DNA of 64,000 nucleotides from an uncultured Candidatus Marinamargulisbacteria bacterium (GTDB lineage: Bacteria > Margulisbacteria > Riflemargulisbacteria > GWF2-35-9). Positions 9,975 through 64,000 of this stretch are shown piece after piece. Every line of letters starts with the position of its first letter. Positions within the stretch are counted from its first letter, which is position 1. A program made the position numbers and the translations under genes. The stretch lies in assembly GCA_903910705.1 (NCBI GenBank), contig CAIWAN010000104.1:2453-66452 (forward strand), written 5' to 3'. The notes below the pieces were generated by a model. The model saw nothing but the letters and a program-made list of their open reading frames with translations, did no database searches and was not told the DNA's origin.

Positions 9975-10088
9975 ATCCTTATGATTGCGGGCTTCATTAT
10001 AGCTTAAAACATAAAACCCGTAAAACCATATACAAAGGCAAATCATTTTGGGTAAAATCGAAACAATACAAAGAAAGAAGGCTTCGCC

Positions 10089-10874
10089 ATGGAATGGAAT
10101 GTATTACTTGCGCCAATTATGCTGTTATTGATTCTATTTATCGGCGTTCCGGAAATAGTCAGGTCACCCCAAGAGTATCTTCATGTTCCAGCGTTAATGA
10201 TCGTTTTGGGTGGTTGTGTTTTCGCCATGTTATTTGGGACCAAATTTAAGAATACATGGAGTCTATTAAAGGCTTATTCGTTTATTGTTATTCCTCAAAA
10301 ACGAATGTCACCACCAGAGGCTATACGGATTATCGTTGAGCTCTCTCGAATTGCATTAACACAAGGGAAAGCGGCCTTGATCCCTGAAATAGAACGGATC
10401 AAAGATCCCTTTCTTCAATATGGGATTTCTTTGGTGGTAGAAAAGTTCCAAGAGCCCTTTATTCGAGCGGCTTTATACAATAGCATCGAAGAAATGCAAG
10501 AACGACATATGACCATCGTGGGTATAAATAGAAACACTGCCGTCGTTGCGCCTATTGCAGGTATGGTGGGAACCATTGTCGGACTCATTCAGGTATTAAG
10601 GAACATGGCCGATCCCTCGCAACTGGGTAAGGCCATGGCCTTAGGACTTATTGCAACCTTTTATGGTGGATTTCTTTCGGGTATGGTGTTTACACCTATC
10701 GCGCAAAAATTAAAGATCATGAGCGATGAAGAGGTTGTATTAAAGCGCATGATGGCCGAGGGGATTTTATTTATTTCAAAGGGCGAAGTTCCGATTAAAG
10801 TTGAAAAATATTTACTTAGTTATCTTCACATGGGTGATGTTAATAAGGCAGCTTTAAGCAATCAATCCGTATGA
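10089..10874 (+). CDS. motA: MotA/PomA-family stator (proton channel) protein
   Basis: 261 aa with 4 predicted TM segments. The C-terminal TM3-TM4 region IAGMVGTIVGLIQVLRNMADPSQLGKAMALGLIATFYGGFLSGMVFTPIAQKL is typical of the MotA/TolQ/ExbB superfamily. Overlaps the downstream motB-like gene by 4 nt. Confidence 0.8.
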   Translation: MEWNVLLAPIMLLLILFIGVPEIVRSPQEYLHVPALMIVLGGCVFAMLFGTKFKNTWSLLKAYSFIVIPQKRMSPPEAIRIIVELSRIALTQGKAALIPEIERIKDPFLQYGISLVVEKFQEPFIRAALYNSIEEMQERHMTIVGINRNTAVVAPIAGMVGTIVGLIQVLRNMADPSQLGKAMALGLIATFYGGFLSGMVFTPIAQKLKIMSDEEVVLKRMMAEGILFISKGEVPIKVEKYLLSYLHMGDVNKAALSNQSV

Positions 10875-11605
10875 GCGGTAGAAAAAAACACGCAGAGGAG
10901 CATGGCGAAAGCCCCATAGGTTTTATTATGTTTGGGGACTTGATGTCCCAGCTTCTATGCTTTTTTATTTTATTGTTTGTTTTTGCCTCACAATATGTTT
11001 CAAAAACACAAGGAACGACCTATGAGGATTTTCTTAAAAAGATAAGCGAGAACTTCAAAAAAGTGGTTGATGAAAAGCAAAAACCTCAAAGCCAGAAGCA
11101 AACGAAAGAGAGCGAATCTGTAAAACAGGAGACGGCAACGGATGCCAAAACAAAGATCGCCCAACAAATCCAGAAACTGGTAAATGATGAAAAACTAACC
11201 GAATATGTAAGTGTAATTGTGGAGGAAAAAAAGGTTCGAATTGTATTAAAACAACCTGTTCTATATGATTCAGGCTCGGCAGAACTAAAACCAGAAGCGG
11301 GATCAATCCTTGCCGATATTGGTGCGATCATTCAGAAGACGCGTAACCCCATTGATATAGAAGGACATACTGATAATATGCCGATCCATACAAGCAAATA
11401 TGATTCGAACTGGGACTTGTCTTTCGATCGGGCCTATTCCGTTATTAAGTTTATGGTTAAAACCGCCGGCATTTCACCGTTGCGCATGAAAACCGTGGGG
11501 TATGGAGAATATCGACCTCTTGCCCCCAATGATAGTGCTGAGAATCGTAGCAAGAATCGACGGATCGAAATCAATGTATTATTTAACGAATCGTTTCGAA
11601 ATTAA
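10871..11605 (+). CDS. motB: MotB-family stator protein with OmpA-like peptidoglycan-binding domain
   Basis: Single N-terminal TM helix carrying the conserved Asp (FIMFGDLMSQLLCFFILLF). C-terminal OmpA_C-like domain (HTDNMPIHTSKY...FDRAYSVIKFMV...RRIEI). 244 aa is MotB size rather than TolR/ExbD size. Confidence 0.8.
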   Translation: MSGRKKHAEEHGESPIGFIMFGDLMSQLLCFFILLFVFASQYVSKTQGTTYEDFLKKISENFKKVVDEKQKPQSQKQTKESESVKQETATDAKTKIAQQIQKLVNDEKLTEYVSVIVEEKKVRIVLKQPVLYDSGSAELKPEAGSILADIGAIIQKTRNPIDIEGHTDNMPIHTSKYDSNWDLSFDRAYSVIKFMVKTAGISPLRMKTVGYGEYRPLAPNDSAENRSKNRRIEINVLFNESFRN

Positions 11606-14944: not shown

Positions 14945-16432
14945 ATGCGACGATCAATTATTAAATGGGGAAGCCTTGTTGTCATATTTATGACCCTTGC
15001 TTTTTCCCAAAATCTGCAGACCTATCAACAACATATTGAAGAGACCGTTCAATCGGCCCTCGATAGAATGTTGGGCGCAGGTCGATCGATAGTCTATATT
15101 TCTCTCATCTCAGAAGGTAATAAGTGGGAGATAAATTATACAAAAATCCCTGATATTCCCGGAATGTCTGATTATCAAGGAGGCGGAAAAGGCCAAAGTA
15201 CAGTTATGCCCGGTATTCCTTCATTAAAGTTTTTGTCTGGCGGGGGAAATGAGGGGGCGCCTCTTAACTATGAGGTGGTCGAACGTAGTCCGGTTGTCGC
15301 CAATAAAGATGTTGTTATTATTATGGATGCTAAGGTCAAGTTAGGTGAAATAAGAGCCGTACGGCAGTTTATTACTGGTTTTTTGAATTTAGATGAACAA
15401 AAGGGCGACAAGCTCTCAATATTAAAACAAAAATTTACCGATCTTTCGGCCGGTGGAAAAGAATCCATTTCCAAACAAAAACTTACTGCAAAAAACAAAC
15501 TGCCTCTTTCAACGATCATCCTTCTTTTAGTAGGACTTGCAGTTCTAGTTGCTATGCTTGTTCTTGTGTTGAAGTCGATGGGACGAAAAAAAGTAATAGA
15601 GGGATCGTCAGCCGAAACAGCGACGCAATTAGCCAATACGGAGGCCACGATTCCGGAAAAAACGGCTGATGAACTCCGAAAAGAAGAAGAAGATGCGCAA
15701 AAGAAAATGGAAGAACAAAAACTGATAGCCATGCGTAATGAAGTGTTAGGAAATGGGGCCAGATATTTTACTTTTGTTGATGATGAGAACACGCACAAGC
15801 TAAAGTTCTTATTGCAGATCAAAATTGCGCTTCAACAAGCGACACCACGAACGGTTGCGGTTGTTATGAGTTGTTTGCCCTCGAACTTAGCAGCATCAAT
15901 ATTGATTGAGTACCCAGTTAAAATTCAGGCAGAGATCATGAACAATATTTTAACCTTACAGCATTACCCAGAAAATGATCTGAGGCAGTTAGAAGAAGAG
16001 ATTAAGAACAGCATAGACTTTTTGTTTGGTGGAAAATATCGCTTAAAACAGGTGATGGATCAATTGTCAGGCGAGGCAAAGAAGCAGCTTCTTTCTTTGG
16101 TCGCTCGCCAAAACCCACCGATAGCTGATGAGCTTAACACGTTGGTTATTCTTTTTGAAGATATTTTAGAGCTAGATGAAAGCACGGTTGCGCGAATATT
16201 TGGAGATATTGATACCGAGATCATCGCGACATCGTTGGTTCATATGGATTCGGGCTATCAACGAAAAGTTCTCGAAACGCTTCCAAAAGGAGTGCAAGCC
16301 ATGGTAGACCAGTGGTTGAGCTTAAAAGGAAATACGGCCTCTCGAGTTGATGTTGACCAAGCCCGACAAGAAGTTATTCAGTACGCGCAAAATTTAGAAA
16401 AAGAAGGGTTTATTTTGATTAATCATGAGTGA
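14945..16432 (+). CDS. membrane-anchored FliG-like protein with FliF/YscJ-type periplasmic ring-building-motif domain
   Basis: Signal/TM1 MRRSIIKWGSLVVIFMTLAF. Periplasmic region resembles a secretin/FliF ring-building motif (SALDRMLGAGRSIVYISL ... VVANKDVVIIMDAKVKLGEIRAVRQFITGFLNLDEQKGDKLSIL). TM2 LPLSTIILLLVGLAVLVAMLVLVL. The cytoplasmic part has FliG-middle-like (AVVMSCLPSNLAASILIEYPVKIQAEIMNNILTL) and FliG-C signatures (ILFEDILELDE matching the MFxFEDL motif; C-terminus DQARQEVIQYAQNLEKEGFILI matching FliG ...EEAQQKI...RRLEE.GEIVI). Confidence 0.55.
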   Translation: MRRSIIKWGSLVVIFMTLAFSQNLQTYQQHIEETVQSALDRMLGAGRSIVYISLISEGNKWEINYTKIPDIPGMSDYQGGGKGQSTVMPGIPSLKFLSGGGNEGAPLNYEVVERSPVVANKDVVIIMDAKVKLGEIRAVRQFITGFLNLDEQKGDKLSILKQKFTDLSAGGKESISKQKLTAKNKLPLSTIILLLVGLAVLVAMLVLVLKSMGRKKVIEGSSAETATQLANTEATIPEKTADELRKEEEDAQKKMEEQKLIAMRNEVLGNGARYFTFVDDENTHKLKFLLQIKIALQQATPRTVAVVMSCLPSNLAASILIEYPVKIQAEIMNNILTLQHYPENDLRQLEEEIKNSIDFLFGGKYRLKQVMDQLSGEAKKQLLSLVARQNPPIADELNTLVILFEDILELDESTVARIFGDIDTEIIATSLVHMDSGYQRKVLETLPKGVQAMVDQWLSLKGNTASRVDVDQARQEVIQYAQNLEKEGFILINHE

Positions 16433-17255
16433 AAAATCCTTCAATCTTTTTCAGAAGCGAGAAGCTAAATCCCAATCGGTTGACGAAGCATCGAAATCAG
16501 CGGACATCCGAAGTGTTTTTCAAGAAAGTGGCAAGGAGGAGACACTAGCCCTTCAATACTTTAGCTATATAACGAAAGACAATACTTATCATACTGCCCA
16601 TGTGTTAAATAAAATCATCAAAGCGAAGCCCGAAAACTTAAAATATGCCTGCCTCGTTATTTCGTACGTTGACCCTGAGTTAGCGCAACGACTATTAGGG
16701 GAGTTTCCGGATGAGATCCAAGTTCATGTTGTTTCTGAATTGTTATCCTTGATCCAATATAGCAAGGCAGAGATCGAGAATTTTGATAAAATTCTGCGTC
16801 GATTGTTGACCGAACAATTTGGCGGGAAATATGTTGTGGCTAAGCTACTAGAAGAGCTTGATATAGAAAAAAAGATGCTTCTAATGCAAGAGTTCTCTAA
16901 ACGATATCCAGACGCAGCAACTTTATTTAGACGGATCATGATCTTATTTGAGGATCTACTCTCACTAAATGAGGTAAATTATCAGCGAATTTTTTCTGAA
17001 GTATCAAACGAAATATTATCCATGGCTTTTTGCAATCATTCCGTTGAACAACAAACTAGACTCTATAATATTCTTCCAAAAGGGCTAAAAAATATTGTTC
17101 AACAAGGTATAGAGCTTGGAAGGAAAAAATACTCAAGAACTGATATCAATAAGGCTCAACAATATATTATTGAGTACGCAAAACAACTCGAAAAGGATGG
17201 GTTTATTGATCCTATCTTAAAGGATGAAAACGCAAAGCCCCCGACATCAAGCTAG
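16425..17255 (+). CDS. soluble FliG-like paralog (FliG middle plus C-terminal domains)
   Basis: 276 aa. Contains ILFEDLLSLNE (the MFxFEDL-type motif) and the C-terminal DINKAQQYIIEYAKQLEKDGFI. Overlaps the upstream gene by 8 nt (ATGAGTGA), which suggests translational coupling. Confidence 0.55.
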   Translation: MSEKSFNLFQKREAKSQSVDEASKSADIRSVFQESGKEETLALQYFSYITKDNTYHTAHVLNKIIKAKPENLKYACLVISYVDPELAQRLLGEFPDEIQVHVVSELLSLIQYSKAEIENFDKILRRLLTEQFGGKYVVAKLLEELDIEKKMLLMQEFSKRYPDAATLFRRIMILFEDLLSLNEVNYQRIFSEVSNEILSMAFCNHSVEQQTRLYNILPKGLKNIVQQGIELGRKKYSRTDINKAQQYIIEYAKQLEKDGFIDPILKDENAKPPTSS

Positions 17256-17328: not shown

Positions 17329-20300
17329 GTGAGAAAATCTTCATGTCATTTCAGGGTAAGGTTCTTCGCACTTGTCGTGGGAATATTGCCGTTTGCCTTC
17401 ACCACGATTACAGACCTTTCCTTTTTTTCAGGAGGCACACAAACACAATATGTTCACGTGATGCAAAATCAGTCTATTGGGTTTAAAGATAGTGCAAACC
17501 AAGTAACCATTAATCTTTCGGATGAGATTCAATTTAAATTGAATTATTCCACAAAGCAATACACAGTATTAAAAGGAAGCGATTGGTTTGATGGAAACCC
17601 AACGATCACTTGGAACAATTTGGCCGAAATTAGTATTAACTACCGCCTAAAATGGACGAACCCTTTTGCTCAAAATATGCCAATTCTCGTGACGATAAAT
17701 GATAACGAAGCCTCGATTACGACATCAATCTTGACGTATAATCAAGAATTTGTTCTTACGGCTTTAACACTTAATGCTGATCAGCAATTCTTTGTCCAAG
17801 ATGCAAACGGGCCTTGGATAAAAGGGGGCATTGGGTCAGGAGAAGGTGTTGTTTGTTTGGGGAACCTCGCCTATAAATATGATACAACTTTGCATCCCTT
17901 GAAAGATGTATCCATGTGTCTATATTTTGACGGAGTGCCTGATGGCTCGCAAGTAAATGTGGGAACAGATGGAAAATTCCAATTTAATAATTTTTTGGTT
18001 CCTATATCTGCAACCGGAGTGAGCAAGAACTGCGAAATTAGGGTTGATTTGGCTGGCGCTATCGGAAGCGCAATCCTTTCATCAACAGTCATACCCAATA
18101 CCTTTAATGTTCAAATTGATAATATGCCACCAACATGGACTGAAACGAGCCTTATCCTTGTATCTGATAATAATTATGAGAGTCAAGGTCGACTGAAGCC
18201 CGACGATGGGTATTATGGCCAACTGACAGTTTCGGTTAAAGTAGACAAATTTAATCTGGTTACAGATAATGCTGGCGCAGGAGTCTCCACGATTCTTTCC
18301 TTTCGTGCCGAACAAGTCACGGTCGAAGGGCTAGACGTAACCACGAGCATTCAAACACGTGAAGGTGTTCGTGACATCCAAGTACTCATTTTTGATAAAG
18401 TCCATAATTCTGCAAGCTTGAGTGTACGCGTAAGTGTTGATGTCACTCCGCCTAGTTTGTTTTCTGTTTATTTGGGGCAGGACAATGATACTACAATCAA
18501 TCAAACCCTTCCTGCCGTTGGGTGGTTTAATGATGAAACCGTGAGTTTTTCGTGGACGACTCCTGCTGATTTTTCCCTTCGAGAATGGCCCTATCAAGTA
18601 AAAAACGACCCGTCTCCAAACTGGTCAGCTGAACAGGAAGGCATTTTATCAGATAATATGTTCCAGTTGACGCGAAATACAAATCAACTTTACATCGAAG
18701 CCGGAGGAAATCTTGCCAAAACCATTAAGGTTAGAGCCGTTGATCGTGCGGGCAATATTCGAGAGGCGAGTACAACCGTTTTTGTTGATAACACACCACC
18801 GACACTCAATGTTTTTAGGCTAAAACCTGATTTAACGCTTGAGGCTGATAGCCTAGAACTTCCCGAGGCAACGCCAAATATCTGGTACAACAATGGGGAT
18901 GAAGTCAATTGGACGTGGTCAGCAGAGGATAATGGTGAACTCCCGCAGAAACCCTATGCGTATTATTATAATAAGGGAAATCAGAATGTATTGACCTCAG
19001 ACTTTACCAATTTATCGGACATCATTATTCCTTCTGATGAAGCCCCAACAGGGAACATGTTAACCCTTTTAATTCGAGACAAAGCGGGGAATGTTGCCAT
19101 TTCAACGAAAAATGTTTTCGTGTCCGAAACGGCTCCCATCATGAGCTATAAAGACATTCTTTTTTTGTCCGACATGACGGATAATGGAGGGGATGGGGTT
19201 CTTGCTGAATCCCTCTGGTATGATCAAACGACATTAGATTTTGTCACAACGGTAAATCTTCAAAGCTTCTCCGCTCCCCTTTCCAAAATTTATTTCAAGC
19301 GGAGCATTGATAGCACGAAGAATATCTTGGATATATCAACCGTGCAGACGATAACTATTTCGAGCTTTGAGATCATATCCAATAGTCGAACAGATATAAC
19401 GTTTGAATTTGTGGATCGAGCGGGTCGTGGAAGCCAAGTTTTTAAAAATGTTGAGTCAACAACAATCGTGCCTATTAATCTAAATGCTGTCCTTGTCAGC
19501 GACAAAGACAGCAGTTTACAGCAAGATGGGATAGATCCCGAGCCAGGTTATTATGATAGTCCAACGATTAGTATCACTTGGCAAAAACCAAATTATTGGG
19601 GACGGCTTCGCGACCAACCGTACTCAACTAATATTAATGGAGAAGGCTGGGGAACCGAGTTCGGGACAGAGGGCCTGCAGCTATCTCTTACGCCAAACCA
19701 TGCTTTTTCGTTAATCATTCGTGCAGCAGATCGCGCTGGAAATGTGGTCACGAATCAACTTTTTGTGACGGTTGATGTCGAGGCCCCAACTGGTTCTTTT
19801 GAGTTTATTATTTCAGAGGATGTCCCCCATAATGGGGGGGTAACCCCTGACATCGGTTGGTATTCTAATCATTGGATCAAAGGTCAATTTCTGTCTGAAA
19901 ATGTGACGGATTTTTTTGGTCTTCGTGAAGCCCGATATTTTGTAAAAAATTTAGAGGTACCTTATGGGCAGGGATCATCCTCTTCTTTAAATGTTGAGAC
20001 TTTTTCTAATGAACGAGGCAGTGTTATCAATTATGTTTCGGGTGCAATTGCCGATCATGCGGGCAATATAATTTCACTCCAAAAACCGGTGTATGTTGAC
20101 ATGACCTCCCCTGGAGCTTTTTCTACAGAGATTTTGCCAGATGCGACTGACAATGGTTCCGATGGATTTTTCCCAGAGGTTGGCTGGTATGATGAAGAGG
20201 CGGTCAATGTTAAGTGGATGCATTCCAATGATGATGCGCAGTTGGCGGAAAAACCTTATAGACTTTCCAGCACGATGCGAGATTGGACCCCGTTCCAACT

Positions 20301-23300
20301 GGCACCTTTTTATGACGGACTTCCTGTTTCTGAGGGTGGCGATATGACGCGAGATGTATATGTTCAGGTCAGAGATAAAGCAGGTAATCTAACAACAGAA
20401 AGTATGACGATAAGAATTGATATTACCCCTCCTGAGATTCTGACGTTTAATATTCTTAATCAAGCACAAACCGTGGTTACTTGGGCTGAAAATAATGGAG
20501 CGGTCTGGCTCGATCAAAATTATTCTCTTCCTCTTCCATCTTGGTATAACACGTCAAACGTTACAATAGCATGGGTAACACCCTCGGAGAATGGGCAGTT
20601 AACGGATCGCCCCTATCGATATCGAGCGAAGTACGGACAAACATCTTTCTCAGAGTGGGTAAGTGGCGATGTGTTTTCTGCTGATATTCACGTATCAGCT
20701 AATGAAAATTCGCCTAATATAATTTATTTTCAGGCCCTAGATCGGGCAGGGAACTTGGCGGTTATAACTCGTTCGATCAACGTCGATTTCTCGCCCCCAT
20801 CAATGAGTGTTCAATATGTGGCGGTAAGCAACGATGTAATCAGAGAGTTTATCCGACCTTATGTCACAACCGGAGACGTTCTTTGGATAACCTTAAATAG
20901 CCAAGAAGTTCTTATTGTCACACCAACGCTTGTTGTTAATAATGGGGTTTATCCCTACGACTTTGTTGAATTTGTTGCGCTAGAACGAGCGTCCGATTAT
21001 GTCTGGACAGCGAGCATCGACCTAAAAAAGATAAATGGAGCGGATGGGTACTTCCTCTATCGTGACGGATCCTATCAATTGGATGTCAAAGCATATGATA
21101 ATGCAGGGAACAAGACCAATACCCTTAATGGGGATGTGTCTTTTGTTGTGAAAAATGACTCTGCACCACCAGGAGAAAATTTTAGTCTCTATGAGTATAT
21201 TGATCTTACACGTAGTGATACCTATACAAGGCATGAAATGGTCGAATTTTCTGTGACGATCGACTCTAAAATCGCCGAGCTCTATCTAACTGAACGGGCA
21301 GACCTCTCGACTTTTGAGAGAGTTAAGTCGTCACAGTCCTCTTTTCAAAGAATATCTAGGGATGCAGCTAAACTCTATACGTTTCAGCCTGACCTGAATA
21401 CGAATGAAGTTATGGATGGCATGAAAACAGTATTTTTATGGACAGTCCTTGAAAACGGGATCGGCTCCGATGTATCGGTAAGTGCAAGGATCCGATATGA
21501 TCATACGGCACCTTTCGTTAGTATTGAGCCTGATTATATGGCTCTTCAAGGTAGAACAGATGGGGTTTCTCTGTCGATAGGAACGTATCATTGCAGGATG
21601 ACACTAAGTTCAAATATTGTCGGGTATAGAGAGGAGGCGATTGAAACGCCCTCGTGGAAACTGCTTCTTCCTGCCGTAGGTGCAACGTTTATAACGGTTG
21701 ACCTAGTGCCCAGCTTAGAAGATCAATCCGATCGAAGCAAGTGGGTCGCTACGTATAATTCAGCTCTCTCAACGGCCAGTGGAAATGCCATATTCCTCAT
21801 AGCGGTAACCGATAATGCCTTAAACCCTACAAACCAAATAAAAGAAGGGGAACGCTTTAACATTGACTTACAAGCAGCAGGGAATCCTTCTTTTTCGGTA
21901 AGATCATTAGATGGTCGACAAGGGTATACTCGGTTCTTAACGGTGAATATTGAGATTCAGAATGATAGTTCTTCGACGACATACAATTATTATAAAATAA
22001 CGGAGGGCTTGCGTTATCGTCCAAGCTTTGAAGCCGTGAATACCCCCTGGGAAAGTTCGCCAACCATTGTAAGTTTTAGAATTGATGAATCGTTCCCACC
22101 AGATGAAGTTCTTGAAGGAGCGAAAACGATTTATGTCTGGAGTAGAATTAACTTTTACCTCAACCCTGAGATCATCGAAAGGCGTATCACTTATGACAAA
22201 ACCCCCCCCAGCCTCAATATTCTCGTTGCGCCTTATCTAAATAAGGCAGACAGTTCAGTCCCAGAATCCTTAAGAGTCACAATGTCGGTAAGCGAAGAAC
22301 TAGAAACAACAAATAGTCAGCTTCTCTTATTGAAAGATGAGAGCAGAAGTACACTCAGTACCTCTAATTGGGTTTTTGACAAGAAAAGTGGAGGTGTTTA
22401 TACCTATGTATCAACCCTAGATATACTCGGAGCGAACAAGTTTACTAATATATCAATTCAAACGATGCTTAGTGATTGGGCAGGCAATACAACGAACCAC
22501 ACACAGGCTGTTCGCCAATTGCTTTCCATTAAAGAACTTAAAGACGAGGTTCCTTCTGCAGCTTCCTTTGTAGAGCAAGGAAAACCCGACTTTCTGGTGA
22601 TGTCTTGTGTGCTTTCAGCGAATGATTTGGCTATTCACTTGCGGGGAATACGGGTTCAGTCAGCTGGATCATATCAGCCCATCGATTTTAATAATTTCAA
22701 GGTGTTTTTAGATGGGAATAATGATGGGCAATTCAATTATGATTCTGGATATGGGTTTGATTCTCTCAAAGGAATGAGTTCAGGTGGAATTGATCAGACG
22801 GGCATTGTTTCAATTTCATTTCTTAGTGAAGAAATGATCCCAAGCAATTCTTCAAAACGTTTTTTTATTGTTGCTGATGTCAGCGTTGGGGCGGTTCAAC
22901 GGGATACCTTTACGATGAAGTTTTTATCATATAACGCGTTTGAAGTTGCAGATAACGAAATGGTTGACTATGCAAATGCACCCAACGAATTTCGAACAAA
23001 ACAGATTATGATCGTTAAGACGATCAGTGGGGTATATTTGGTTCCGCAAATCGGCTCACAAAGTTCCGCCAACAGGGTCACACAAAATGTAAATCGAGGT
23101 GGATCCAACCAGCTTCTTAATAAGTTTACTCTGTATACAGACAAAGGCGTTGCTCTCTGGAGCGGAATAAAACTCCGATATAGCGGAACCATAGGAACCG
23201 AACACCTTAATCTTTCCTTGTATAAGGATACAAATCTAAATGGCCTTTTTGAACTAGAAGCGGATGGTCAGGTTAGCTATCCCAGTAATCGGTTTGAGGT

Positions 23301-25059
23301 TGGACAGTCAGTAATGACACTCAATCTCAAAGACAATCAGCTTATCAATGCGATCGACTCGGACAAAATGACTTATTTCCTTGTGGGGGATCTCTCGTTG
23401 GATAGCCCCCTATCCACTACGTTTGATCTAGCGATAGTAAGTAGTAATGAAGTGCTTGTTGAGACACCCAATCAAGTAGTTTCGTCTCTACTACCCTATA
23501 GAACGGCTGAATTTAAAGTACAAGATTATGTTTCAAAAATCGTAATGACTGTTGCAAACAACCCCCAACAAGATGTTTTTCAGGGAGATAGTATTATTCT
23601 TCAAAAAATGTTGTTTGATCTCGACTTGGCTAGCGCAGCACAATTTACCTATATTGATTATTATTTTGATGGGACGGCCCTGATTGCGGACTTTTTGGCT
23701 GATGGTAATGATTCAGGGATTGCTCTGTATGGGTTATCTTCAAATATGACCCTGACTCAAGATTTCGAAAGAGATGTATTGCTCGGGGCAACAAAGATTG
23801 AGGCAACCAATAGTTGGTCAGATGGAAATCATCGCCTTAGGATTAATTTCTTGACGGAACAACCCCTTGTAACTCACAACTTATTTGCCCTAGTGGTTAC
23901 GCTAAATGGCGGGTCAACACCCGGCCGGCAATTTAGTTTTACCTCCCATCTCGAAGTGGTTAGTCAAAATCCCTATATAGGTGTTGTAGGTGCCGTCGCA
24001 AATAAGGATCAAACCTTTTCTACGAATACCGTAGAGATTATTAGTGAGTTTAATCCAAGTCAACCCAAGGTTAGCATGAACTATTATAATCGTTTCCCCA
24101 CAAAACTACCTCTTTCGTTTGATACATACACAAAATATGGATTCATAAATCGCACATCCCTTCATGTTAATGATGTTGTTGGCTATAGCTATTTAATAGG
24201 AACCATTCCGGGGCTAGGCGATGTAGCTTCTGAGCCAAAAGTTGATCTGATCGAGCCGTCCCCTATTAAAGTGGATGTTCAGGCAGACATACAAAATATT
24301 AGCCTATTGCCGGATCAACTTTACTATTTAACGTTACGGTCGATCGCAACTCGATCGGATAATTCAGGAACGTTATATTCTAAGCCTGTGGTCATTCCTT
24401 TTATGACAGACTTTTCTCCACCGCACCTCCCCAATTACCCGATAGATGTTCAAATTGATGGGACAAAACATTTGTTAAGCTGGGAAGATTTTTCTGACCC
24501 TGTCTCGGGAATAAAACGTTTTTATATAGAAGAAAAGAGTAACTATATTCCCTCGTGGAACCTAATAACCGTTTTGCCGCCAGTGAGCGATCCTATGCAA
24601 CCTAAAATTAGCGAGAGATATTATTCTACTCAGTCCAGAAAACCAAACATGTCCTATACCTATCGTGTTAAAGCCGAGAATCAAGCGGGGTTGATGAGCG
24701 ACTATATTTACTCAACGCCCCTTACAACCGCGGATACAGATAAAGTTCTCAGTAGTGTTAGTAACTACCCCAATCCTTTTAATTCAAGAAAGGAAAAAAC
24801 CACATTATTTTATTATTTGAATCAAGATACAGGTATCGAGGTGCGAATCTACGATTCAATAGGTCATTTTGTGCGAAAATTTAACTATACAGCTGGAATA
24901 ATTGGCAAGACGGTAAAGGGTGATTGTACAATGGAGTGGGATGGCAAGAATGAGCAGGGTGAATATGTTGCAAAGGGTGGATATTTTGTTGTTATTGAGG
25001 CGCCAGACACAAAGGGTGAGGATAAAAAAATTGTTCGTATGGTTGGGGTGATCCACTAA
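17329..25059 (+). CDS. giant (2576 aa) repetitive cell-surface protein with T9SS/FlgD-Ig-type C-terminal sorting domain
   Basis: N-terminal signal-like MRKSSCHFRVRFFALVVGILPFAF. At least 11 repeats of roughly 115 aa bounded by DRAGN...V(D/N)x(T/S)(P/A)P junctions (DNMPPT, DVTPPS, DNTPPT, DVEAPTG, DMTSPG, DITPPE, DFSPPS, DHTAPF, DKTPPS, FSPPHLP), each with a GWY...W...PY core. The last roughly 90 aa (NYPNPFNSRKEKTTLFYY...IYDSIGHFV...EWDGKNEQGEYVAKGGYFVVIEA) match the Por secretion tail / FlgD Ig-like family. Confidence 0.7.
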   Translation: MRKSSCHFRVRFFALVVGILPFAFTTITDLSFFSGGTQTQYVHVMQNQSIGFKDSANQVTINLSDEIQFKLNYSTKQYTVLKGSDWFDGNPTITWNNLAEISINYRLKWTNPFAQNMPILVTINDNEASITTSILTYNQEFVLTALTLNADQQFFVQDANGPWIKGGIGSGEGVVCLGNLAYKYDTTLHPLKDVSMCLYFDGVPDGSQVNVGTDGKFQFNNFLVPISATGVSKNCEIRVDLAGAIGSAILSSTVIPNTFNVQIDNMPPTWTETSLILVSDNNYESQGRLKPDDGYYGQLTVSVKVDKFNLVTDNAGAGVSTILSFRAEQVTVEGLDVTTSIQTREGVRDIQVLIFDKVHNSASLSVRVSVDVTPPSLFSVYLGQDNDTTINQTLPAVGWFNDETVSFSWTTPADFSLREWPYQVKNDPSPNWSAEQEGILSDNMFQLTRNTNQLYIEAGGNLAKTIKVRAVDRAGNIREASTTVFVDNTPPTLNVFRLKPDLTLEADSLELPEATPNIWYNNGDEVNWTWSAEDNGELPQKPYAYYYNKGNQNVLTSDFTNLSDIIIPSDEAPTGNMLTLLIRDKAGNVAISTKNVFVSETAPIMSYKDILFLSDMTDNGGDGVLAESLWYDQTTLDFVTTVNLQSFSAPLSKIYFKRSIDSTKNILDISTVQTITISSFEIISNSRTDITFEFVDRAGRGSQVFKNVESTTIVPINLNAVLVSDKDSSLQQDGIDPEPGYYDSPTISITWQKPNYWGRLRDQPYSTNINGEGWGTEFGTEGLQLSLTPNHAFSLIIRAADRAGNVVTNQLFVTVDVEAPTGSFEFIISEDVPHNGGVTPDIGWYSNHWIKGQFLSENVTDFFGLREARYFVKNLEVPYGQGSSSSLNVETFSNERGSVINYVSGAIADHAGNIISLQKPVYVDMTSPGAFSTEILPDATDNGSDGFFPEVGWYDEEAVNVKWMHSNDDAQLAEKPYRLSSTMRDWTPFQLAPFYDGLPVSEGGDMTRDVYVQVRDKAGNLTTESMTIRIDITPPEILTFNILNQAQTVVTWAENNGAVWLDQNYSLPLPSWYNTSNVTIAWVTPSENGQLTDRPYRYRAKYGQTSFSEWVSGDVFSADIHVSANENSPNIIYFQALDRAGNLAVITRSINVDFSPPSMSVQYVAVSNDVIREFIRPYVTTGDVLWITLNSQEVLIVTPTLVVNNGVYPYDFVEFVALERASDYVWTASIDLKKINGADGYFLYRDGSYQLDVKAYDNAGNKTNTLNGDVSFVVKNDSAPPGENFSLYEYIDLTRSDTYTRHEMVEFSVTIDSKIAELYLTERADLSTFERVKSSQSSFQRISRDAAKLYTFQPDLNTNEVMDGMKTVFLWTVLENGIGSDVSVSARIRYDHTAPFVSIEPDYMALQGRTDGVSLSIGTYHCRMTLSSNIVGYREEAIETPSWKLLLPAVGATFITVDLVPSLEDQSDRSKWVATYNSALSTASGNAIFLIAVTDNALNPTNQIKEGERFNIDLQAAGNPSFSVRSLDGRQGYTRFLTVNIEIQNDSSSTTYNYYKITEGLRYRPSFEAVNTPWESSPTIVSFRIDESFPPDEVLEGAKTIYVWSRINFYLNPEIIERRITYDKTPPSLNILVAPYLNKADSSVPESLRVTMSVSEELETTNSQLLLLKDESRSTLSTSNWVFDKKSGGVYTYVSTLDILGANKFTNISIQTMLSDWAGNTTNHTQAVRQLLSIKELKDEVPSAASFVEQGKPDFLVMSCVLSANDLAIHLRGIRVQSAGSYQPIDFNNFKVFLDGNNDGQFNYDSGYGFDSLKGMSSGGIDQTGIVSISFLSEEMIPSNSSKRFFIVADVSVGAVQRDTFTMKFLSYNAFEVADNEMVDYANAPNEFRTKQIMIVKTISGVYLVPQIGSQSSANRVTQNVNRGGSNQLLNKFTLYTDKGVALWSGIKLRYSGTIGTEHLNLSLYKDTNLNGLFELEADGQVSYPSNRFEVGQSVMTLNLKDNQLINAIDSDKMTYFLVGDLSLDSPLSTTFDLAIVSSNEVLVETPNQVVSSLLPYRTAEFKVQDYVSKIVMTVANNPQQDVFQGDSIILQKMLFDLDLASAAQFTYIDYYFDGTALIADFLADGNDSGIALYGLSSNMTLTQDFERDVLLGATKIEATNSWSDGNHRLRINFLTEQPLVTHNLFALVVTLNGGSTPGRQFSFTSHLEVVSQNPYIGVVGAVANKDQTFSTNTVEIISEFNPSQPKVSMNYYNRFPTKLPLSFDTYTKYGFINRTSLHVNDVVGYSYLIGTIPGLGDVASEPKVDLIEPSPIKVDVQADIQNISLLPDQLYYLTLRSIATRSDNSGTLYSKPVVIPFMTDFSPPHLPNYPIDVQIDGTKHLLSWEDFSDPVSGIKRFYIEEKSNYIPSWNLITVLPPVSDPMQPKISERYYSTQSRKPNMSYTYRVKAENQAGLMSDYIYSTPLTTADTDKVLSSVSNYPNPFNSRKEKTTLFYYLNQDTGIEVRIYDSIGHFVRKFNYTAGIIGKTVKGDCTMEWDGKNEQGEYVAKGGYFVVIEAPDTKGEDKKIVRMVGVIH

Positions 25060-26604: not shown

Positions 26605-27362
26605 GGTGGTGGGATACCCATTGTCATGTAACGGATGCTCGTTTTGAGGATGTTTACTCATTACTAGCTCAATCGAAAGCGGCGGGGGTAGGGACGGTTA
26701 TTGTGCCCTCTACAGACCTAGAAGATGCAAAAAAGGCGTTAGTTTTAAGTGAATCACATAACCTTTATTTTGCTGCAGGCGTTCATCCCCATGAGGCAAC
26801 AATCCTTTCATCGGAGACACTCGACGGTTTTGATCGGATTCTTTCACATCAACAATGCGTGGCCGTGGGTGAGATCGGCTTAGATTATCATTATGAGGGG
26901 ATCGAGAAAGCGACACAGAAGAAAGTATTAATCCAAATGATGGAGCTTGCTGTTTTAAAGAGGTTACCGGTGATTCTACATACACGAGACGCCGAGGCAG
27001 ATGTTTTCGCCACAGCGACTGAATTTCCTTTGGTCGGAGGGGTCTGCCACTCCTATACCGGCGAGGTTTCCTTGCTTCGAAAGTATTTGGATGCGGGTTA
27101 TGACGTTTCATTTAATGGGATGCTGACGTTTAAAGGGAGCGAGAATATTCGTGAGCTTGCTCGGTTCGCACCTCTTGACCGTATTGTGCTGGAGACGGAT
27201 GCGCCGTATTTGGCGCCGACTCCCCATAGAGGTAAGATGAATGAGCCGGCCAATATCCCGTTGATCGCAAAGAGTCTGGCTGAGATCAAATCAATCCCTC
27301 TTGACACTATCGCTAGCCAAACGTCTCATAATGCAGCCCGTCTTTTTTCAAAAGTCCGATGA
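26601..27362 (+). CDS. tatD: TatD-family metal-dependent hydrolase/DNase
   Basis: WWDTHCHV start, VGEIGLDYHYE motif and TatD metal ligands. 4-nt overlap with metG. Confidence 0.85.
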   Translation: MRWWDTHCHVTDARFEDVYSLLAQSKAAGVGTVIVPSTDLEDAKKALVLSESHNLYFAAGVHPHEATILSSETLDGFDRILSHQQCVAVGEIGLDYHYEGIEKATQKKVLIQMMELAVLKRLPVILHTRDAEADVFATATEFPLVGGVCHSYTGEVSLLRKYLDAGYDVSFNGMLTFKGSENIRELARFAPLDRIVLETDAPYLAPTPHRGKMNEPANIPLIAKSLAEIKSIPLDTIASQTSHNAARLFSKVR

Positions 27363-28444
27363 ATACGGTCATTCTTTTTCATCCAAAAAAAGGACTTTTC
27401 TTTGCGGCGATGACGCCACAGCAGATGGAGCGATGGCAACACTTTAAAGGGTTTGTCCTTTTTTCTTGGGAATATCGGCAACCCAATGCGGATGACCTGA
27501 TATCGTTTCTTCAGTATCTCTCTGTCAGCCTTTTAGGAAATCCAGATTGGTCACGTTTGATCAACGATTTTGTTAAGACCCATCAGGGGATTCAATTTCG
27601 AAGGCTACTCCGAGACGTAAGCACTGGGCTTCAGCAAGGCGTGTCTTTTGACAATGCGTTACGACAATTTCTGCCCCCTCAGTTGATCACAGCCGTTCTT
27701 TCAGCCCAGAAAAGGGGGCAATTATCTGAGGAGATCTCAACGATTATTGAGCACTATCGAAAAGAGACCGAGGAATACGCTAAGCGTAGATCTAAGCAAG
27801 TTTACCCGTTAACACTGGCTCTAGGCCTCGTTGGGCTTATCGCTTTGGTGGATGTTCAATTTGTTCCTGTATTGCGATCCCTTTTTGATAGCTATGGACT
27901 AAAGCCACCGTTTATCTTGAGTTTATTTAATCTTAAGGTACAGCTTGGGATGATTGGTGTATTGTTTGGACTAGGCGTGATGGCTCGTTGGGTTTATCAA
28001 CGATTGTCCTTTCATCAAAAAGCCCTTGTCCCGATACTGGGGACCATATCGATCCTTCAGCTTCATCAACATCTTCTCGATGCGTATCAAGAGTCTTTGA
28101 TTCGTGAATGCTCCTACGATTTAGTATTAGAGGAGCGGGTCGCGTCGGAAAGAAACTCCTTTATCAAGTTTGGTTTAAGCACCATTTCGGGGCGACTGAA
28201 GCAAGGGAAATCCCTTTCCTTGGCGATCAAAGATATTCCATCGATACGTGGATGGGTGGGTGGATGGGTTCGGGGTGGCTCTTTGAGTGCCTATCAACAG
28301 CAACTTCGACAAAAGGAAGCAGCGTTGCGAGATCGCCTTCAGGCCCTCCTTGTCGCGACCTTAATTGCCCTCGTCTCGCTCGTAATCACCGGTTTAGGGT
28401 TTCTAATTACGCTGCCGCTTCAATATGCGGATAAGCTGATCTAA
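27359..28444 (+). CDS. polytopic inner-membrane protein, divergent GspF/PilC (T2SS-F/T4P platform)-like
   Basis: 361 aa. N-terminal cytoplasmic segment with a T2SSF-like motif LLRDVSTGLQQGVSFDNALRQFLPPQLITAVLSAQKRGQLSEEIS, followed by TM helices. A second, weaker repeat (LSTISGRLKQGKSLSLAIKDIP) precedes the last TM. The assignment rests on architecture, not on strong sequence identity. Confidence 0.35.
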   Translation: MNTVILFHPKKGLFFAAMTPQQMERWQHFKGFVLFSWEYRQPNADDLISFLQYLSVSLLGNPDWSRLINDFVKTHQGIQFRRLLRDVSTGLQQGVSFDNALRQFLPPQLITAVLSAQKRGQLSEEISTIIEHYRKETEEYAKRRSKQVYPLTLALGLVGLIALVDVQFVPVLRSLFDSYGLKPPFILSLFNLKVQLGMIGVLFGLGVMARWVYQRLSFHQKALVPILGTISILQLHQHLLDAYQESLIRECSYDLVLEERVASERNSFIKFGLSTISGRLKQGKSLSLAIKDIPSIRGWVGGWVRGGSLSAYQQQLRQKEAALRDRLQALLVATLIALVSLVITGLGFLITLPLQYADKLI

Positions 28445-41791: not shown

Positions 41792-42361
41792 CTATTTTTC
41801 GGAGGCGACCAAGCTTTCAAGCTTAGCTAGAAAACGCTCGAGATCAACCTTCTCTGTCTTTTTTGGGCCAAGACTCATGGCTAGCATCCAGTCAGCTTTT
41901 GCTTGTTCATATTGGCCGAGCATATAATAACCGGACCCTCTACGAATCCACGAGAGCGTATTCTTTGGGGCAACCTTAATAACGGAATTACATTCTTCAA
42001 TGGTAAGCCAATACTTCGCCTCATAAAAGTAGACTAAGGCGAGATTGAGGTGACGAGAAATGTAGTCCATGGTTCCACCTGACAATTCCTCAGATACGGT
42101 TGGTTTCTTCTCGGTCGCCATTTTTTCAAGCATGTCATTCATTTTCTTTCGGGCAGAATCTTCCTTTTTCTGAATAACATATTCCATTTCATCGGCAGCC
42201 GTCGGGTTATCATCGACAAACTTCTTCAGCGATTCAATCAGCATCCGTTGGTCATCAATACCGGTAATCTCTGCTCCCACAGGGGTGGTTTCGCTCATCC
42301 CCATAGAACCCAAACATAGGGCGACTAATATTCCAATGACTAATGGTGACTTCTTTATCAT
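41792..42361 (-). CDS. secreted/lipoprotein TPR-repeat protein
   Basis: Signal peptide with lipobox-like MIKKSPLVIGILVALCLGSMG. TPR-like helices (ALVYFYEAKYWLTIEECNSVIKVAPKNTLSWIRRGSGYYMLGQYEQAKADWMLAMSL). 189 aa. Confidence 0.4.
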   Translation of the reverse strand: MIKKSPLVIGILVALCLGSMGMSETTPVGAEITGIDDQRMLIESLKKFVDDNPTAADEMEYVIQKKEDSARKKMNDMLEKMATEKKPTVSEELSGGTMDYISRHLNLALVYFYEAKYWLTIEECNSVIKVAPKNTLSWIRRGSGYYMLGQYEQAKADWMLAMSLGPKKTEKVDLERFLAKLESLVASEK

Positions 42362-42379: not shown

Positions 42380-43612
42380 TTATTTAGCCTTCTCTGGATG
42401 GTTAATGAGCTCCATCAAGTGAAGGACGTTCGTGTTGTCGACGAACCGTGCAAGGAGCGGTTTGATCTCGATGGCAGCTTTATCGGTCTCGCCTCGCACA
42501 ACCATGGCTTTGATCCGAGAATAGTCGGGCCATATGGCTCTCTCGGCTTCAAGACTGAGTCCGAGTTTGTCGCTTAATTGTTCAAGCTTCTTGAGCTTGG
42601 CTATCTTTTTTACGACGTCTTCGTCATTGGGATTTAGGATATAGGCTTTTTTCATGTCTTCAAGGGCGAGCAGGAAGAACCCTTCTCGGTATTTTTCTAT
42701 GCCCGTTGCATGCCAATCGGAGGCCACATTTTGTTGAAGGTCATTGATGATCTGCCCAATTCCGAGATTAATCGAAAATCGATTGTTGGCACCGAGCTCA
42801 CTATTGGAGTAAGCATAATCAAAACGAAGCCCAGCGAGTTCACTGCTAAAGCCAAAATTAGTGGACTCATAGTTTAACCCCCCGCGGATCGTAAGCAACG
42901 GGTGAAGTTGATATTCTGCGCCCAAAAACCACGTGTTGGCGTCGTTCTCCAGATCATAAGAGAGGCAAAAGCCTTTATCCCGAAAGGCGACACCGCCACG
43001 AATAACGGGGGTAAACTTGTCCGTGGAAAATTTATCCATTTGATAATCAAGGATATTTTGAACCGTGCCTGCGATGGTCAGAAAGGATAAGGGCCGAAAC
43101 ATGACACCCAAATCGCCCACAATCCGAGCATCCGTATTCGTGTATAACGTGCGGGTTACATACTTTACAGAGGTGCCAATAGAGAGGTTCGGCAATAATA
43201 TGGGTTGGGCATACGAAAGTCCCATCGAGGTCTTTGAGTCATAAAACGTCCCCTGAGCGACGTTATATTGATCACGAAGTTCCATGGGTGAAGATTGAAG
43301 CGATACATACGAAAAACCGATATGATTATCCACCATAGGAATGACACAGTTAAATGCGGTAAGCTGATACTCGCCGAATAAGTCGGATTGAAAAAAACTT
43401 CCTTCGATATTTCCGATCTGTAACATTCCGGCCGGATTGCTGTATACCGCAGACGAATCGTTTGCCACAGCGACAAAGGCACTGCCCATCCCAATGCTTC
43501 GAGCACTGGCACCGTAACTCAGAAAGGCACTGGGTTGTCCCCCGTTAAGGCTAAAGCCAAACGAGAAAAGAAAAGCACTGAAAATACATAATTTAATTTT
43601 TGTGTTCAACAT
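42380..43612 (-). CDS. FadL/PorV-like outer-membrane beta-barrel protein with C-terminal helical extension
   Basis: Signal peptide MLNTKIKLCIFSAFLFSFGFS. N-terminal hatch-like motif SARSIGMGSAFVAVANDSSAVYSNPAGM (NPA motif as in FadL/PorV/PorQ). Beta-strand pattern over about 300 aa, then a roughly 100-aa charged helical tail. Confidence 0.35.
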   Translation of the reverse strand: MLNTKIKLCIFSAFLFSFGFSLNGGQPSAFLSYGASARSIGMGSAFVAVANDSSAVYSNPAGMLQIGNIEGSFFQSDLFGEYQLTAFNCVIPMVDNHIGFSYVSLQSSPMELRDQYNVAQGTFYDSKTSMGLSYAQPILLPNLSIGTSVKYVTRTLYTNTDARIVGDLGVMFRPLSFLTIAGTVQNILDYQMDKFSTDKFTPVIRGGVAFRDKGFCLSYDLENDANTWFLGAEYQLHPLLTIRGGLNYESTNFGFSSELAGLRFDYAYSNSELGANNRFSINLGIGQIINDLQQNVASDWHATGIEKYREGFFLLALEDMKKAYILNPNDEDVVKKIAKLKKLEQLSDKLGLSLEAERAIWPDYSRIKAMVVRGETDKAAIEIKPLLARFVDNTNVLHLMELINHPEKAK

Positions 43613-63357: not shown

Positions 63358-63928
63358 GAATGAGAAAATTGGAGTTTTATCACGACGGATAAACGCAAGT
63401 ACTCGGATCGAAGGGACTATCTAATTCAAGCTGTTAAAGCAAGAAGAAAGAGAGTACGACAGTTAGCGATTGAGTATTTGGGCGGAAAGTGTTGTGCTTG
63501 TGGATATCATAAGTGTGATGATGCTTTAGAGTTTCATCATCTTGATCGTTCTAAAAAGGACTTTGGAATATCTAGTAAGGGATACACTCGAAGCTGGCAA
63601 AAAGTGAAAGAAGAGTTGGATAAATGTCTTCTTCTTTGTGCGAATTGTCATCGTGAAGAACATACAAAGTTGCAGCCCATTCGTGAAAGCGAGTGTGGAA
63701 AAATCGGGTGAACTCATGGAACCCCTAACGTAAAGACGAGGGCAATCATGAGCCAAGCTCATCGAAGGCTAAAGAGTAGATGAGAAGGTGCAGAGACTAA
63801 GGGATGAGAAAGCCAATCAATAAGCCCTACTAGCGCCCGACGCCTAAATCAGTAGACGTTTACATCCAGATGTAAAGCTGACAGGGTGATGATATAGTCC
63901 AATCTTAGGTGAAAGCTTAAGGCAATTG
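63358..63928 (+). mobile_element. group I self-splicing intron carrying an HNH endonuclease ORF
   Basis: 5' splice site follows U (CUGU|G). 3' splice site follows G (CAAUUG|UAA). J6/7-P7 AGAGACUAA paired with J8/7-P7' GAUAUAGUCC, the same consensus as Tetrahymena ACAGACUAAA / AUAUAGUC. P9 hairpin CUUAGGU-GAAA-GCUUAAG with a GNRA tetraloop. ORF inserted in the 5' peripheral region. Confidence 0.55.
63478..63711 (+). CDS. intron-encoded HNH homing endonuclease (minimal, 77 aa, TTG start)
   Basis: CCACGYHKCDDALEFHHLDRSKKDFG....CLLLCANCHREEH has the His-His...Asn...His motif flanked by two CxxC zinc-knuckle pairs. The only start in frame is TTG at 63478. Confidence 0.55.
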   Translation: MGGKCCACGYHKCDDALEFHHLDRSKKDFGISSKGYTRSWQKVKEELDKCLLLCANCHREEHTKLQPIRESECGKIG

Positions 63929-64000
63929 TAACCAGCGGGTCCGTGGTTCGAGTCCGCGCCGGGGAGCCAAATTTACGTTTATTACCGATATAAAAAGCCT

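Follow-up and report, generated by a model that had tools for sequence, protein, structure and literature searches.

What does a giant repetitive protein do when its gene lies directly behind two genes resembling the flagellar rotor gene fliG? The question is raised by a stretch of 64,000 nucleotides from an uncultured Candidatus Marinamargulisbacteria bacterium (contig CAIWAN010000104.1, positions 2,453 to 66,452 of the forward strand), called the window below; coordinates refer to it unless a locus from another source is named. A preliminary description had reported an open reading frame (ORF) of 2576 amino acids (aa) at 17329-25059 and had linked its product both to FliG-like/MotAB-type motor parts and to the gliding adhesins of the Bacteroidota type IX secretion system (T9SS). 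The first link was borne out in six independently sampled Margulisbacteria arrangements and in Elusimicrobiota. We read the giant protein, with moderate confidence, as a fibre of the cell surface (or envelope) that belongs to a motor-linked machine occurring throughout the Margulisbacteria, that is, a gliding or adhesion apparatus equipped with flagellar-type motor parts.

The gene itself was verified at the outset of this argument. A single ORF of 2576 codons with a GTG start fills 17329..25059 on the plus strand, as the ORF call and translation confirmed; the 73-nt gap that separates it from the short FliG-like gene ending at 17255, and the TAA stop that abuts the metG ATG at 25060, were likewise found as first described. 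The European Nucleotide Archive scaffold BUCK21-1 scaffold_139 (L001) is identical to the window apart from a run of ten N at L001 7893-7902 (window 22962), at which gene callers divide the giant gene into pieces of 1838 and 683 aa. Because the split in the public contig stems solely from this run, the ORF is intact; a frameshift or pseudogene was ruled out and the split call is a scaffold-gap artefact. With a net charge of -106, the product is acidic; it is all-beta, and Ser, Thr and Asn are abundant. Hydropathy predicted a Sec-type signal peptide at about aa 1-27 (17329..17409, +), with a basic n-region followed by the hydrophobic segment FFALVVGILPFAF, and orthologues such as P0004 and P0007 carry clear signal peptides. 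Full-length orthologues, named Candidatus Margulisbacteria or Margulisiibacteriota, span 2522-2594 aa and are 27-86% identical. Taken together, the analyses show a Sec-exported protein of about 20 immunoglobulin (Ig)-like/FN3 beta-sandwich modules that ends in a conserved "handle" of an FN3 domain and a C-terminal domain (CTD).

The body of the fibre begins with seven tandem Ig-like repeats of about 102-122 aa each at aa 373-1154 (18445..20790, +), joined in the pattern TPP...GWY...W...PY...D(R/K)AGN...VD. A hidden Markov model (HMM) made from them recovered 7 significant copies (independent E-values of 1e-29 to 1e-43; shuffled controls reached at most 4 bits), and nothing else in the giant protein exceeded the shuffled-control level. 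Self-BLAST found no repeats because the copies are too divergent, and the HMM was required. The junction motifs reach further than the repeats, the D.AGN-like motif occurring 10 times and the D.TPP-like motif about 12 times; therefore, some 11-12 modules share a junction, whereas the recognisable repeat family numbers only seven. The preliminary description, which put the number of tandem repeats with a GWY...W...PY core at 11 or more, was thus right about the junctions and too generous about the copies. Each repeat is 45-51% identical to the orthologous copy in other species and 16-31% identical to the neighbouring repeats. This repeat-by-repeat conservation, combined with the constant length of the orthologues, argues for a fibre of fixed architecture and not for a variable-repeat adhesin.

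None of the seven repeats matched a Pfam family at threshold, and in the PDB they matched Ig/FN3 domains only marginally. The following segment, aa 1155-2329 (20791..24315, +), consists of divergent beta-sandwich modules, some of which retain D.AGN or D.TPP junctions; it contains a Big_13 tail match at aa 1245-1267, and further Big_13, Big_3_2 and OmpL47-type matches in the giant protein stayed below threshold. An AlphaFold2 (AF2) model of the last 840 aa (aa 1737-2576), built from five input sequences with a predicted local distance difference test (pLDDT) score of 64, was all-beta. Foldseek matched it to tandem Ig-domain stalks (PrgB, the antigen I/II (AgI/II) stalks, an archaeal S-layer protein, a mastigoneme and integrin legs), and no enzyme or barrel module was found in these 840 aa. 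The regions after the repeats had been called non-repetitive; in the model, the C-terminal third is also made of beta-sandwich modules.

The last ~125 aa are the most conserved segment of the giant, with an identity of 0.73-0.83 in divergent orthologues against 0.3-0.6 elsewhere. In the handle, an FN3 domain (about aa 2330-2470; 24316..24738, +), detected through a profile match to titin/contactin FN3 in the PDB at aa 2330-2427, directly precedes the CTD (aa ~2471-2576; 24739..25056, +). The FN3 domain was all that a profile of nine giant orthologues matched in the PDB. The CTD has the FlgD-Ig/T9SS-CTD fold and, by subfamily alignment, belongs to a "class B tail" subfamily that ends in ...RMVGVIH. 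Its sequence (YPNPFN...IYDSIGHFV...EWDGKNEQGEYVAKGGYFVVIEA) scored 31.1 bits on Pfam FlgD_ig (PF13860; cutoff 27). Por_Secre_tail (TIGR04183) gave 15.0 bits when the full protein was scanned; on the isolated last ~100 aa it just reached its cutoff of 23 with 23.3 bits. PF18962 matched neither the giant protein nor its CTD, and CHU_C (PF13585, type B) reached 15.8 bits against a cutoff of 27. The isolated domain further matched two NCBIfam models, PorU and PorZ, at their C-termini. A CTD of the broad T9SS/FlgD-Ig type, as originally proposed, is thus supported; the FlgD_ig model is passed, TIGR04183 is borderline, PF18962 is without a match and the tail is not classical.

The tail ..RMVGVIH falls in the class K-I-[AG]-V-x-[HKR], unlike the 60-odd classical tails (..KMxLLK) in our metagenome sample. 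At the level of sequence, assignment of the giant CTD to either classical T9SS signal, type A or type B, is not supported. Membership in the type B/SprB family was ruled out by the CHU_C score. Identity with FlgD was rejected as well: only the Ig-like part matches (positions 93-157 of 197 in NF005176, 29-35 bits against a cutoff of 230), FlgD measures ~140-290 aa unlike the giant with its 2576 aa, and there are no rod or hook genes nearby. Beyond the orthologue group, the nearest CTDs came from Elusimicrobiota (41-51% identity). With these, the domain forms a subfamily of the pattern SNYPNPFDSR..IYDL.G..WDG.N..KGGY, ending in R-[KM]-[IV]-G-V-I-H and usually having FN3 just upstream. A CTD profile search of a 5.8-billion-protein database yielded proteins of less than 200 aa only and did not list the full-length orthologues again. 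No further CTD proteins were present in the window or the related Margulisbacteria loci. A second giant, of at least 3433 aa, was encountered on L021 (Ga0307929_1001648), a contig whose sample also yielded the Margulisbacteria locus L017; the CTD of this giant lies at 10001-10300 and has the class-B-like tail ..QRVIGIIH, and the flanks fetched for it held no barrel, FliG or MotAB gene.

These features bear on the idea that the giant is a classical T9SS cargo or gliding adhesin, exported canonically through SprA, PorK/L/M/N and PorU/V, with a CTD that is either cleaved or employed in the manner of SprB, and with FliG/MotAB replacing GldLM or adding to it. We consider this improbable. The fold family of the CTD, the TIGR04183 score of the isolated domain and the matches to the PorU/PorZ C-termini do speak for it, as does a PorV/PorQ-like barrel encoded in the window. 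However, the organism belongs to the Margulisiibacteriota, within the Cyanobacteriota/Melainabacteria group, and not to the Bacteroidota, and PMC8564354 describes T9SS as confined to Bacteroidetes and relatives. The missing PF18962 match and the low CHU_C score tell against it too, the giant's tail is unlike all of the 46 or more classical tails sampled, and SprA, PorK/L/M/N and PorU were seen neither in the 64 kb of the window nor across ~150 kb of related loci. The Bacteroidota-type T9SS interpretation of the preliminary description is not supported, the PorV/Q-like barrel being the sole T9SS core-type gene seen in the window.

In flagella, MotA5B2 stators turn against the FliG C-terminal domain, and RBM3 of FliF forms the S-ring. 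The longer FliG-like gene (14945..16432, +) encodes 495 aa laid out as an N-terminal signal/transmembrane (TM) segment, a ~160-aa periplasmic FliF-RBM3-like domain, a TM helix at aa 184-214, a charged linker, and the Pfam domains FliG_M and FliG_C. The FliG region matched PDB 1LKV with E = 4e-44. In the AF2 model (pLDDT 66.5) the periplasmic part folded as alpha-beta-beta, an insertion, and alpha-beta, and Foldseek retrieved FliG, FliF RBM3/S-ring/collar structures (8Z5V with E = 1.3e-5, 6SD1 with TMt 0.54, and 8FTF), then SpoIIIAG and PrgK. A profile of the periplasmic and TM part, run against 1.84 billion representatives, collected 662 clusters and reached canonical FliF at residues ~230-457 (E ~1e-11 to 1e-12; Pfam YscJ_FliF and YscJ_FliF_C), and the fusion relatives match PF08345 at 24-38 bits. 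The fusion layout was found in 92 of the 150 top representative clusters, and many add C-terminal tetratricopeptide repeats (TPR). Since both FliF RBM3 and the middle and C-terminal domains of FliG are matched by sequence and by fold, the 495-aa protein is a FliF(RBM3)-TM-FliG(MC) fusion that occurs naturally and amounts to a minimal rotor. When tested against canonical FliF, it corresponded only to the RBM3/collar and TM2 half, RBM1-2 being absent. A scan of a genome collection with the rotor alignment returned a single locus because the peptide patterns derived from the alignment were too narrow.

The second FliG-like gene (16425..17255, +) overlaps the rotor gene by 8 nt and encodes a soluble protein of 276 aa with FliG_M and FliG_C, 28% identical to the C-terminal half of the rotor and present in every Margulisbacteria locus. 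TIGR00207 gave 65 and 59 bits on the two FliG-like proteins against a cutoff of 226.7, and FliG_N is absent; judged by these profiles, they are FliG homologues and not canonical FliG. The stator pair at 10089..11605 comprises MotA (10089-10874, +; Pfam MotA_ExbB) and MotB (10871-11605, +; Pfam MotB_plug and OmpA), the latter with the TM Asp in ..FGDLMSQLL... The nearest PDB entry to MotA was Vibrio PomA (8BRD, E = 4e-38). The best NCBIfam matches were PomA/MotP/MotA for MotA and MotS/MotD/MotB for MotB, all below equivalog cutoffs. By homology, this is a flagellar-type stator pair.

Two further arrangements of these families were met in the searches. P0190, an 836-aa protein from the representative search, carries a histidine kinase (HisKA and HATPase_c) N-terminal to FliF_C-like, FliG_M and FliG_C domains, an unexpected sensor-rotor fusion. 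In another lineage (L015/L016, 6691-12088), a Sel1/SPOR protein, MotA, MotB, a 372-aa membrane protein, a TPR protein and a 695-aa membrane FliG-like protein are encoded together, with no giant; this cluster suggests that there are further non-flagellar MotAB plus FliG-like modules.

The gene order of the window runs motA, motB, clpC (minus strand), HU, SSB, the FliG-like genes of 495 and 276 aa, giant, metG, tatD, a PilC/T2SS-F-like gene, and a gene for a 1664-aa secreted protein (minus strand). The same order, with motAB ~4 kb upstream, was found in L005, whose giant is 41% identical. A third contig, L012, reads FliG-long, FliG-short, giant, metG; it starts at FliG-long and so shows only that no motAB lies between FliG-short and the giant. 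In L006 (35%), L007 (37%), L013/L014 (27%, Riflemargulisbacteria-type) and L017, the genes for FliG-long, FliG-short, MotA, MotB and the giant are contiguous on one strand, which makes the five-gene operon the commoner form. It is probably also the older one, motAB having moved ~4 kb in the lineage of the window. The giant orthologues always adjoin the FliG-like pair. Within the window, the giant, rotor, FliG-short and motAB genes are each single-copy. A promoter/terminator scan, whose overall match count did not exceed the shuffled expectation, placed no terminator-like site in the gaps flanking the giant gene, including that of 73 nt.

The association extends to a second phylum. L018, a contig from a metagenome-assembled genome of Elusimicrobiota (GC 67%), encodes on one strand a giant CTD protein of at least 3451 aa, a barrel-TPR protein, a FliF/FliG fusion with TPR, a 772-aa protein, MotA and MotB; the names given by NCBI include "PorV/PorQ family protein" and "FliG C-terminal domain-containing protein". 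The fusion has a signal peptide, a periplasmic domain and a TM segment at 217-246. The L018 giant aligns with that of the window over FN3 and CTD only (31% over 285 aa, window giant aa 2326-2576), and FN3 precedes the CTD in Elusimicrobiota fragments as well. In L008 and L020, a stand-alone CTD protein of 128-132 aa is followed by barrel-TPR and then by the FliF/FliG fusion. From these three layouts it follows that the handle, the barrel and the motor are conserved, and not the body of the fibre.

Additional large proteins are encoded between the rotor gene and motAB in these loci (L018 14211-16529; L008 9328-14145 and 14281-15759): the 772-aa protein of L018, with a Pro-rich N-terminus, and proteins of 1605 aa and at least 1133 aa, the latter two having a homologous region of ~200 aa in common. 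All of these proteins are without Pfam matches and without a predicted TM segment or signal peptide.

The synteny has to be weighed against a simpler explanation, in which the giant is a passive S-layer, sheath or attachment protein of Ig repeats anchored by its CTD, the motor genes are unrelated, and adjacency reflects inherited order or co-regulation. Its best Foldseek matches, adhesin stalks and an archaeal S-layer protein, are what such a protein would give. Housekeeping genes, among them metG and tatD, keep their order relative to the giant gene too, and on a larger scale the series clpC-HU-SSB recurs throughout the phylum. Furthermore, 13 metagenome loci with a CTD giant and a barrel showed no visible FliG or MotAB within 10 kb. 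Nevertheless, the FliG pair still adjoins the giant where motAB was relocated, an unrelated Elusimicrobiota giant likewise shares its cluster with a fusion rotor and MotAB, stand-alone CTD proteins lie beside barrel and rotor, and fixed length with position-specific repeat conservation would be unusual for a variable adhesin. A purely passive role is therefore unlikely in our judgement.

If the motor-linked fibre has its own anchor on the outer membrane, the window offers a candidate. A gene at 42380..43612 (-) encodes a 410-aa outer-membrane barrel resembling the PorV/PorQ family of 14-strand barrels, with a TPR-like C-terminal third (TPR matches at aa 291-346). Besides PorV_fam, it matches the PorQ and PorV2 models. 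BLASTP related it to the barrels of L008 and L011 (6e-40 and 7e-30, 26-32% identity), which adjoin CTD genes and pass the PorV_fam cutoff of 90 with 134.8 and 124.0 bits; a further relative is the L018 barrel, annotated by NCBI as PorV/PorQ family protein. Searched by sequence against the PDB, it matched TPR alone. Immediately downstream, at 41792..42361 (-), lies a gene for a secreted TPR protein of 189 aa (Pfam TPR; N-terminal hydrophobic segment). By its BLASTP match to the C-terminus of the L008 barrel-TPR (8e-7), it is the counterpart of the TPR extension that barrels of the Elusimicrobiota-type loci carry in fused form.

Barrel and tail are linked on a wider scale. Using our own HMMs, we compared 80 metagenome loci with CTD relatives, 62 of which extend at least 1.2 kb past the CTD gene. 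Where the tail was of the class K-I-[AG]-V-x-[HKR], a PorV/Q-like barrel gene started at the end of the CTD gene in 13 of 16 loci; for classical T9SS tails (..KMxLLK), this was so in none of 46 (Fisher p = 6.7e-11). The CTD tail class thus predicts barrel adjacency, in phyla other than that of the window. Many CTD proteins in this sample are themselves giants of 2900-3450 aa, and the Margulisbacteria locus L017 is one of the three exceptions. The preliminary description had made its reading depend on there being some machinery able to handle a CTD protein, and the window does encode such a candidate: its barrel is a candidate docking partner of the giant CTD.

Studies of known systems give this pairing a context. 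PMC9143113 describes PorV and PorP/SprF as FadL-family barrels that bind CTD proteins, SprF as co-expressed with SprB and required for its secretion and anchoring, and PorE, the periplasmic partner of PorP, as having a TPR domain. The same source states that the proton-driven T9SS motor energises secretion as well as motility. This last point favours another possibility, namely that the motor energises only secretion or assembly of the giant through a dedicated outer-membrane route, as PorLM does in T9SS or ExbBD with TonB, without any motility. Each motor operon has one cargo gene, cargo bodies that vary from phylum to phylum are joined to a conserved CTD and FN3 handle, and a dedicated barrel gene follows the cargo gene, all of which would suit such a task. 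On the other hand, a full torque-generating FliG C-terminal domain and a ring-forming RBM3 suggest continuous rotation and not a gating stroke, and no translocon was identified. We regard secretion alone as distinctly unlikely to be the whole function, noting that it overlaps the reading as a motor-linked fibre and is not separable from it by sequence alone.

The motor-linked fibre that we favour could work as follows. PorU and PorZ retain their CTDs, which are docked on barrels. Sec would export the giant fibre, and its FN3 and CTD handle would dock non-covalently on the PorV/Q-like barrel, holding the fibre on the outer membrane; this docking is modelled on SprB-SprF and on PorU/PorZ, which are thought to sit on PorV/PorQ. 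The MotAB stator would turn proton flow into rotation of the ring of FliF/FliG fusions. Rotor energy would then cross the periplasm, perhaps via the TPR module, and would serve fibre export or movement or tension on the cell surface. The comparison of the giant with a moving cargo like SprB, as initially put forward, is suggested by gene context.

Several observations weigh against this scheme. The functional case is argued from gene context and homology throughout. No SprA/Sov-like translocon was identified, and the passage of a folded 2,576-aa chain over the outer membrane is left without an explanation; nor was a periplasm-spanning shaft identified, and the scheme does not explain how a ~160-aa periplasmic ring would reach the outer membrane. 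The AF2 models have pLDDT values of 64-66, a moderate level of confidence. The barrel scored 72.7 bits on PorV_fam (NF033709, E = 3.8e-20), under the cutoff of 90, and its gene lies 17 kb from the giant gene in the window and does not adjoin the giant in Margulisbacteria. The co-linearity with the housekeeping genes metG and tatD means that part of the Margulisbacteria synteny could be inherited order and not the result of selection. Finally, neither the FliG torque helix nor the MotA loop carries its charges where the flagellar proteins have them. On the torque helix they are displaced yet conserved within the family, and the MotA equivalent of PomA R88 is Leu, from which we infer a diverged rotor-stator interface.

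On a broader view, and more tentatively than for the fibre itself, we propose that the module represents an undescribed class of proton-driven rotary envelope machine in Margulisiibacteriota and Elusimicrobiota, something we hold to be possible at somewhat below an even chance. Its minimal FliF-RBM3/FliG fusion rotor, with or without a second FliG paralogue, would work with MotAB, without a type III export apparatus, rod, hook or switch, and drive the export, the movement or both of a giant CTD fibre via a PorV/PorQ-type barrel. The rotor family spans at least 92 clusters at 50% identity. The machine would be either a surviving relative of the rotor-stator module that preceded the flagellum or a separate case in which flagellar motor parts were taken over for gliding or adhesion. 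The module appears new in its organisation, its parts being recognisable, and its function is read from them. The literature searched on Margulisbacteria, Termititenax, Elusimicrobia and FliG-like plus MotA/PorV combinations held no description of such a module, and the Margulisbacteria genome paper does not mention flagella, motility or secretion.

Among known systems, the closest parallel is the SprB/SprF/GldLM system of Flavobacterium johnsoniae, which likewise combines a giant repeat adhesin bearing a signal peptide and CTD, a cognate FadL-family barrel, a linked proton-driven inner-membrane motor of the 5:2 superfamily and, in some variants, a TPR-containing periplasmic partner (PorE). 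It differs in its motor (GldL/GldM, in place of MotA/MotB and a FliF/FliG-type rotor) and its barrel, which here belongs to the PorV/PorQ and not the PorP/SprF family; no PorP/SprF barrel adjoins the giant, metG does, and the window has no FadL-type barrel besides the PorV/PorQ-like one. Moreover, curated models place the CTD described here in neither type A nor type B, its tail motif is distinctive, SprA and GldK/N/J were not found at the loci examined, and the phyla are Margulisiibacteriota and Elusimicrobiota as opposed to Bacteroidota.

The likeness to the flagellar motor lies in a MotA nearest to PomA/MotA, a MotB with plug, Asp and OmpA-like domain, and a rotor homologous to FliG_M/FliG_C and the FliF RBM3/collar. 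In contrast to that motor, RBM1/RBM2 and FliG_N are missing, a covalent fusion takes their place, and the torque-helix charges are shifted; FliM/FliN, the export gate, rod, hook and filament have no genes in the operon, whose last gene encodes a Sec-dependent giant Ig-repeat protein. PorU-PorV and PorZ-PorQ of Porphyromonas gingivalis share with the present loci the association of a CTD-type domain with a PorV/PorQ-family barrel, but PorU, a sortase, and PorZ, an A-LPS (anionic lipopolysaccharide) carrier, measure ~750-1100 aa and are not fibres, and no sortase-type component was found here. Giant Ig-like adhesins (Big_13/Big_3-type, PrgB and antigen I/II stalks) resemble the giant in their strings of beta-sandwiches and D.AGN...VD.T.P junctions; they differ from it in that its repeat number and length are fixed over ~70% sequence divergence, it ends in the FN3 and CTD handle, and it belongs to a motor operon.

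Of the ways in which a MotAB-superfamily stator can be coupled to cell movement, only two are understood well, namely MotAB-FliG in the flagellum and GldLM in Bacteroidota gliding/T9SS. If our proposal is true, a stator, a fusion rotor, a CTD giant fibre and a PorV/Q barrel would make up a third design that mixes parts thought to be system-specific. It would bear on what the FliG/FliF/MotAB module does without the type III secretion core, and hence on the origin of the flagellar motor. It would also extend CTD/PorV-type surface anchoring far beyond the Bacteroidota-related phyla and supply a motility or attachment candidate for two phyla with few or no cultured members, one being the sister lineage of Cyanobacteria.

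Surrounding genes, namely ylqD, sepF, yggT and a tRNA gene interrupted by a group I intron, fit the placement in Margulisiibacteriota. The 1664-aa secreted protein (28441-33435, -) has an outer-membrane-protein-like C-terminus (..SGKLIF) and adjoins the PilC/T2SS-F-like gene (27359-28444, +); counterparts of 1695-1714 aa stand beside a PilC/T2SS-F-like gene in L005 and L007. Searches of Pfam and the PDB gave no relatives of this protein apart from faint phage tail-tube-like matches, so that an SprA-like translocon is unsupported; it could be an outer-membrane component.

The group I intron (RF00028, 90.6 bits), together with the tRNA 3' half that follows it (T-arm GGTTCGAGTCC ... GGGGAGCCA), occupies 63654-63968 (+), and ARAGORN did not call the split tRNA. 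Just upstream of the intron, at 63560-63660, an HNH-like motif, LCANCHREEH, is encoded, which may belong to an intron-borne homing endonuclease.

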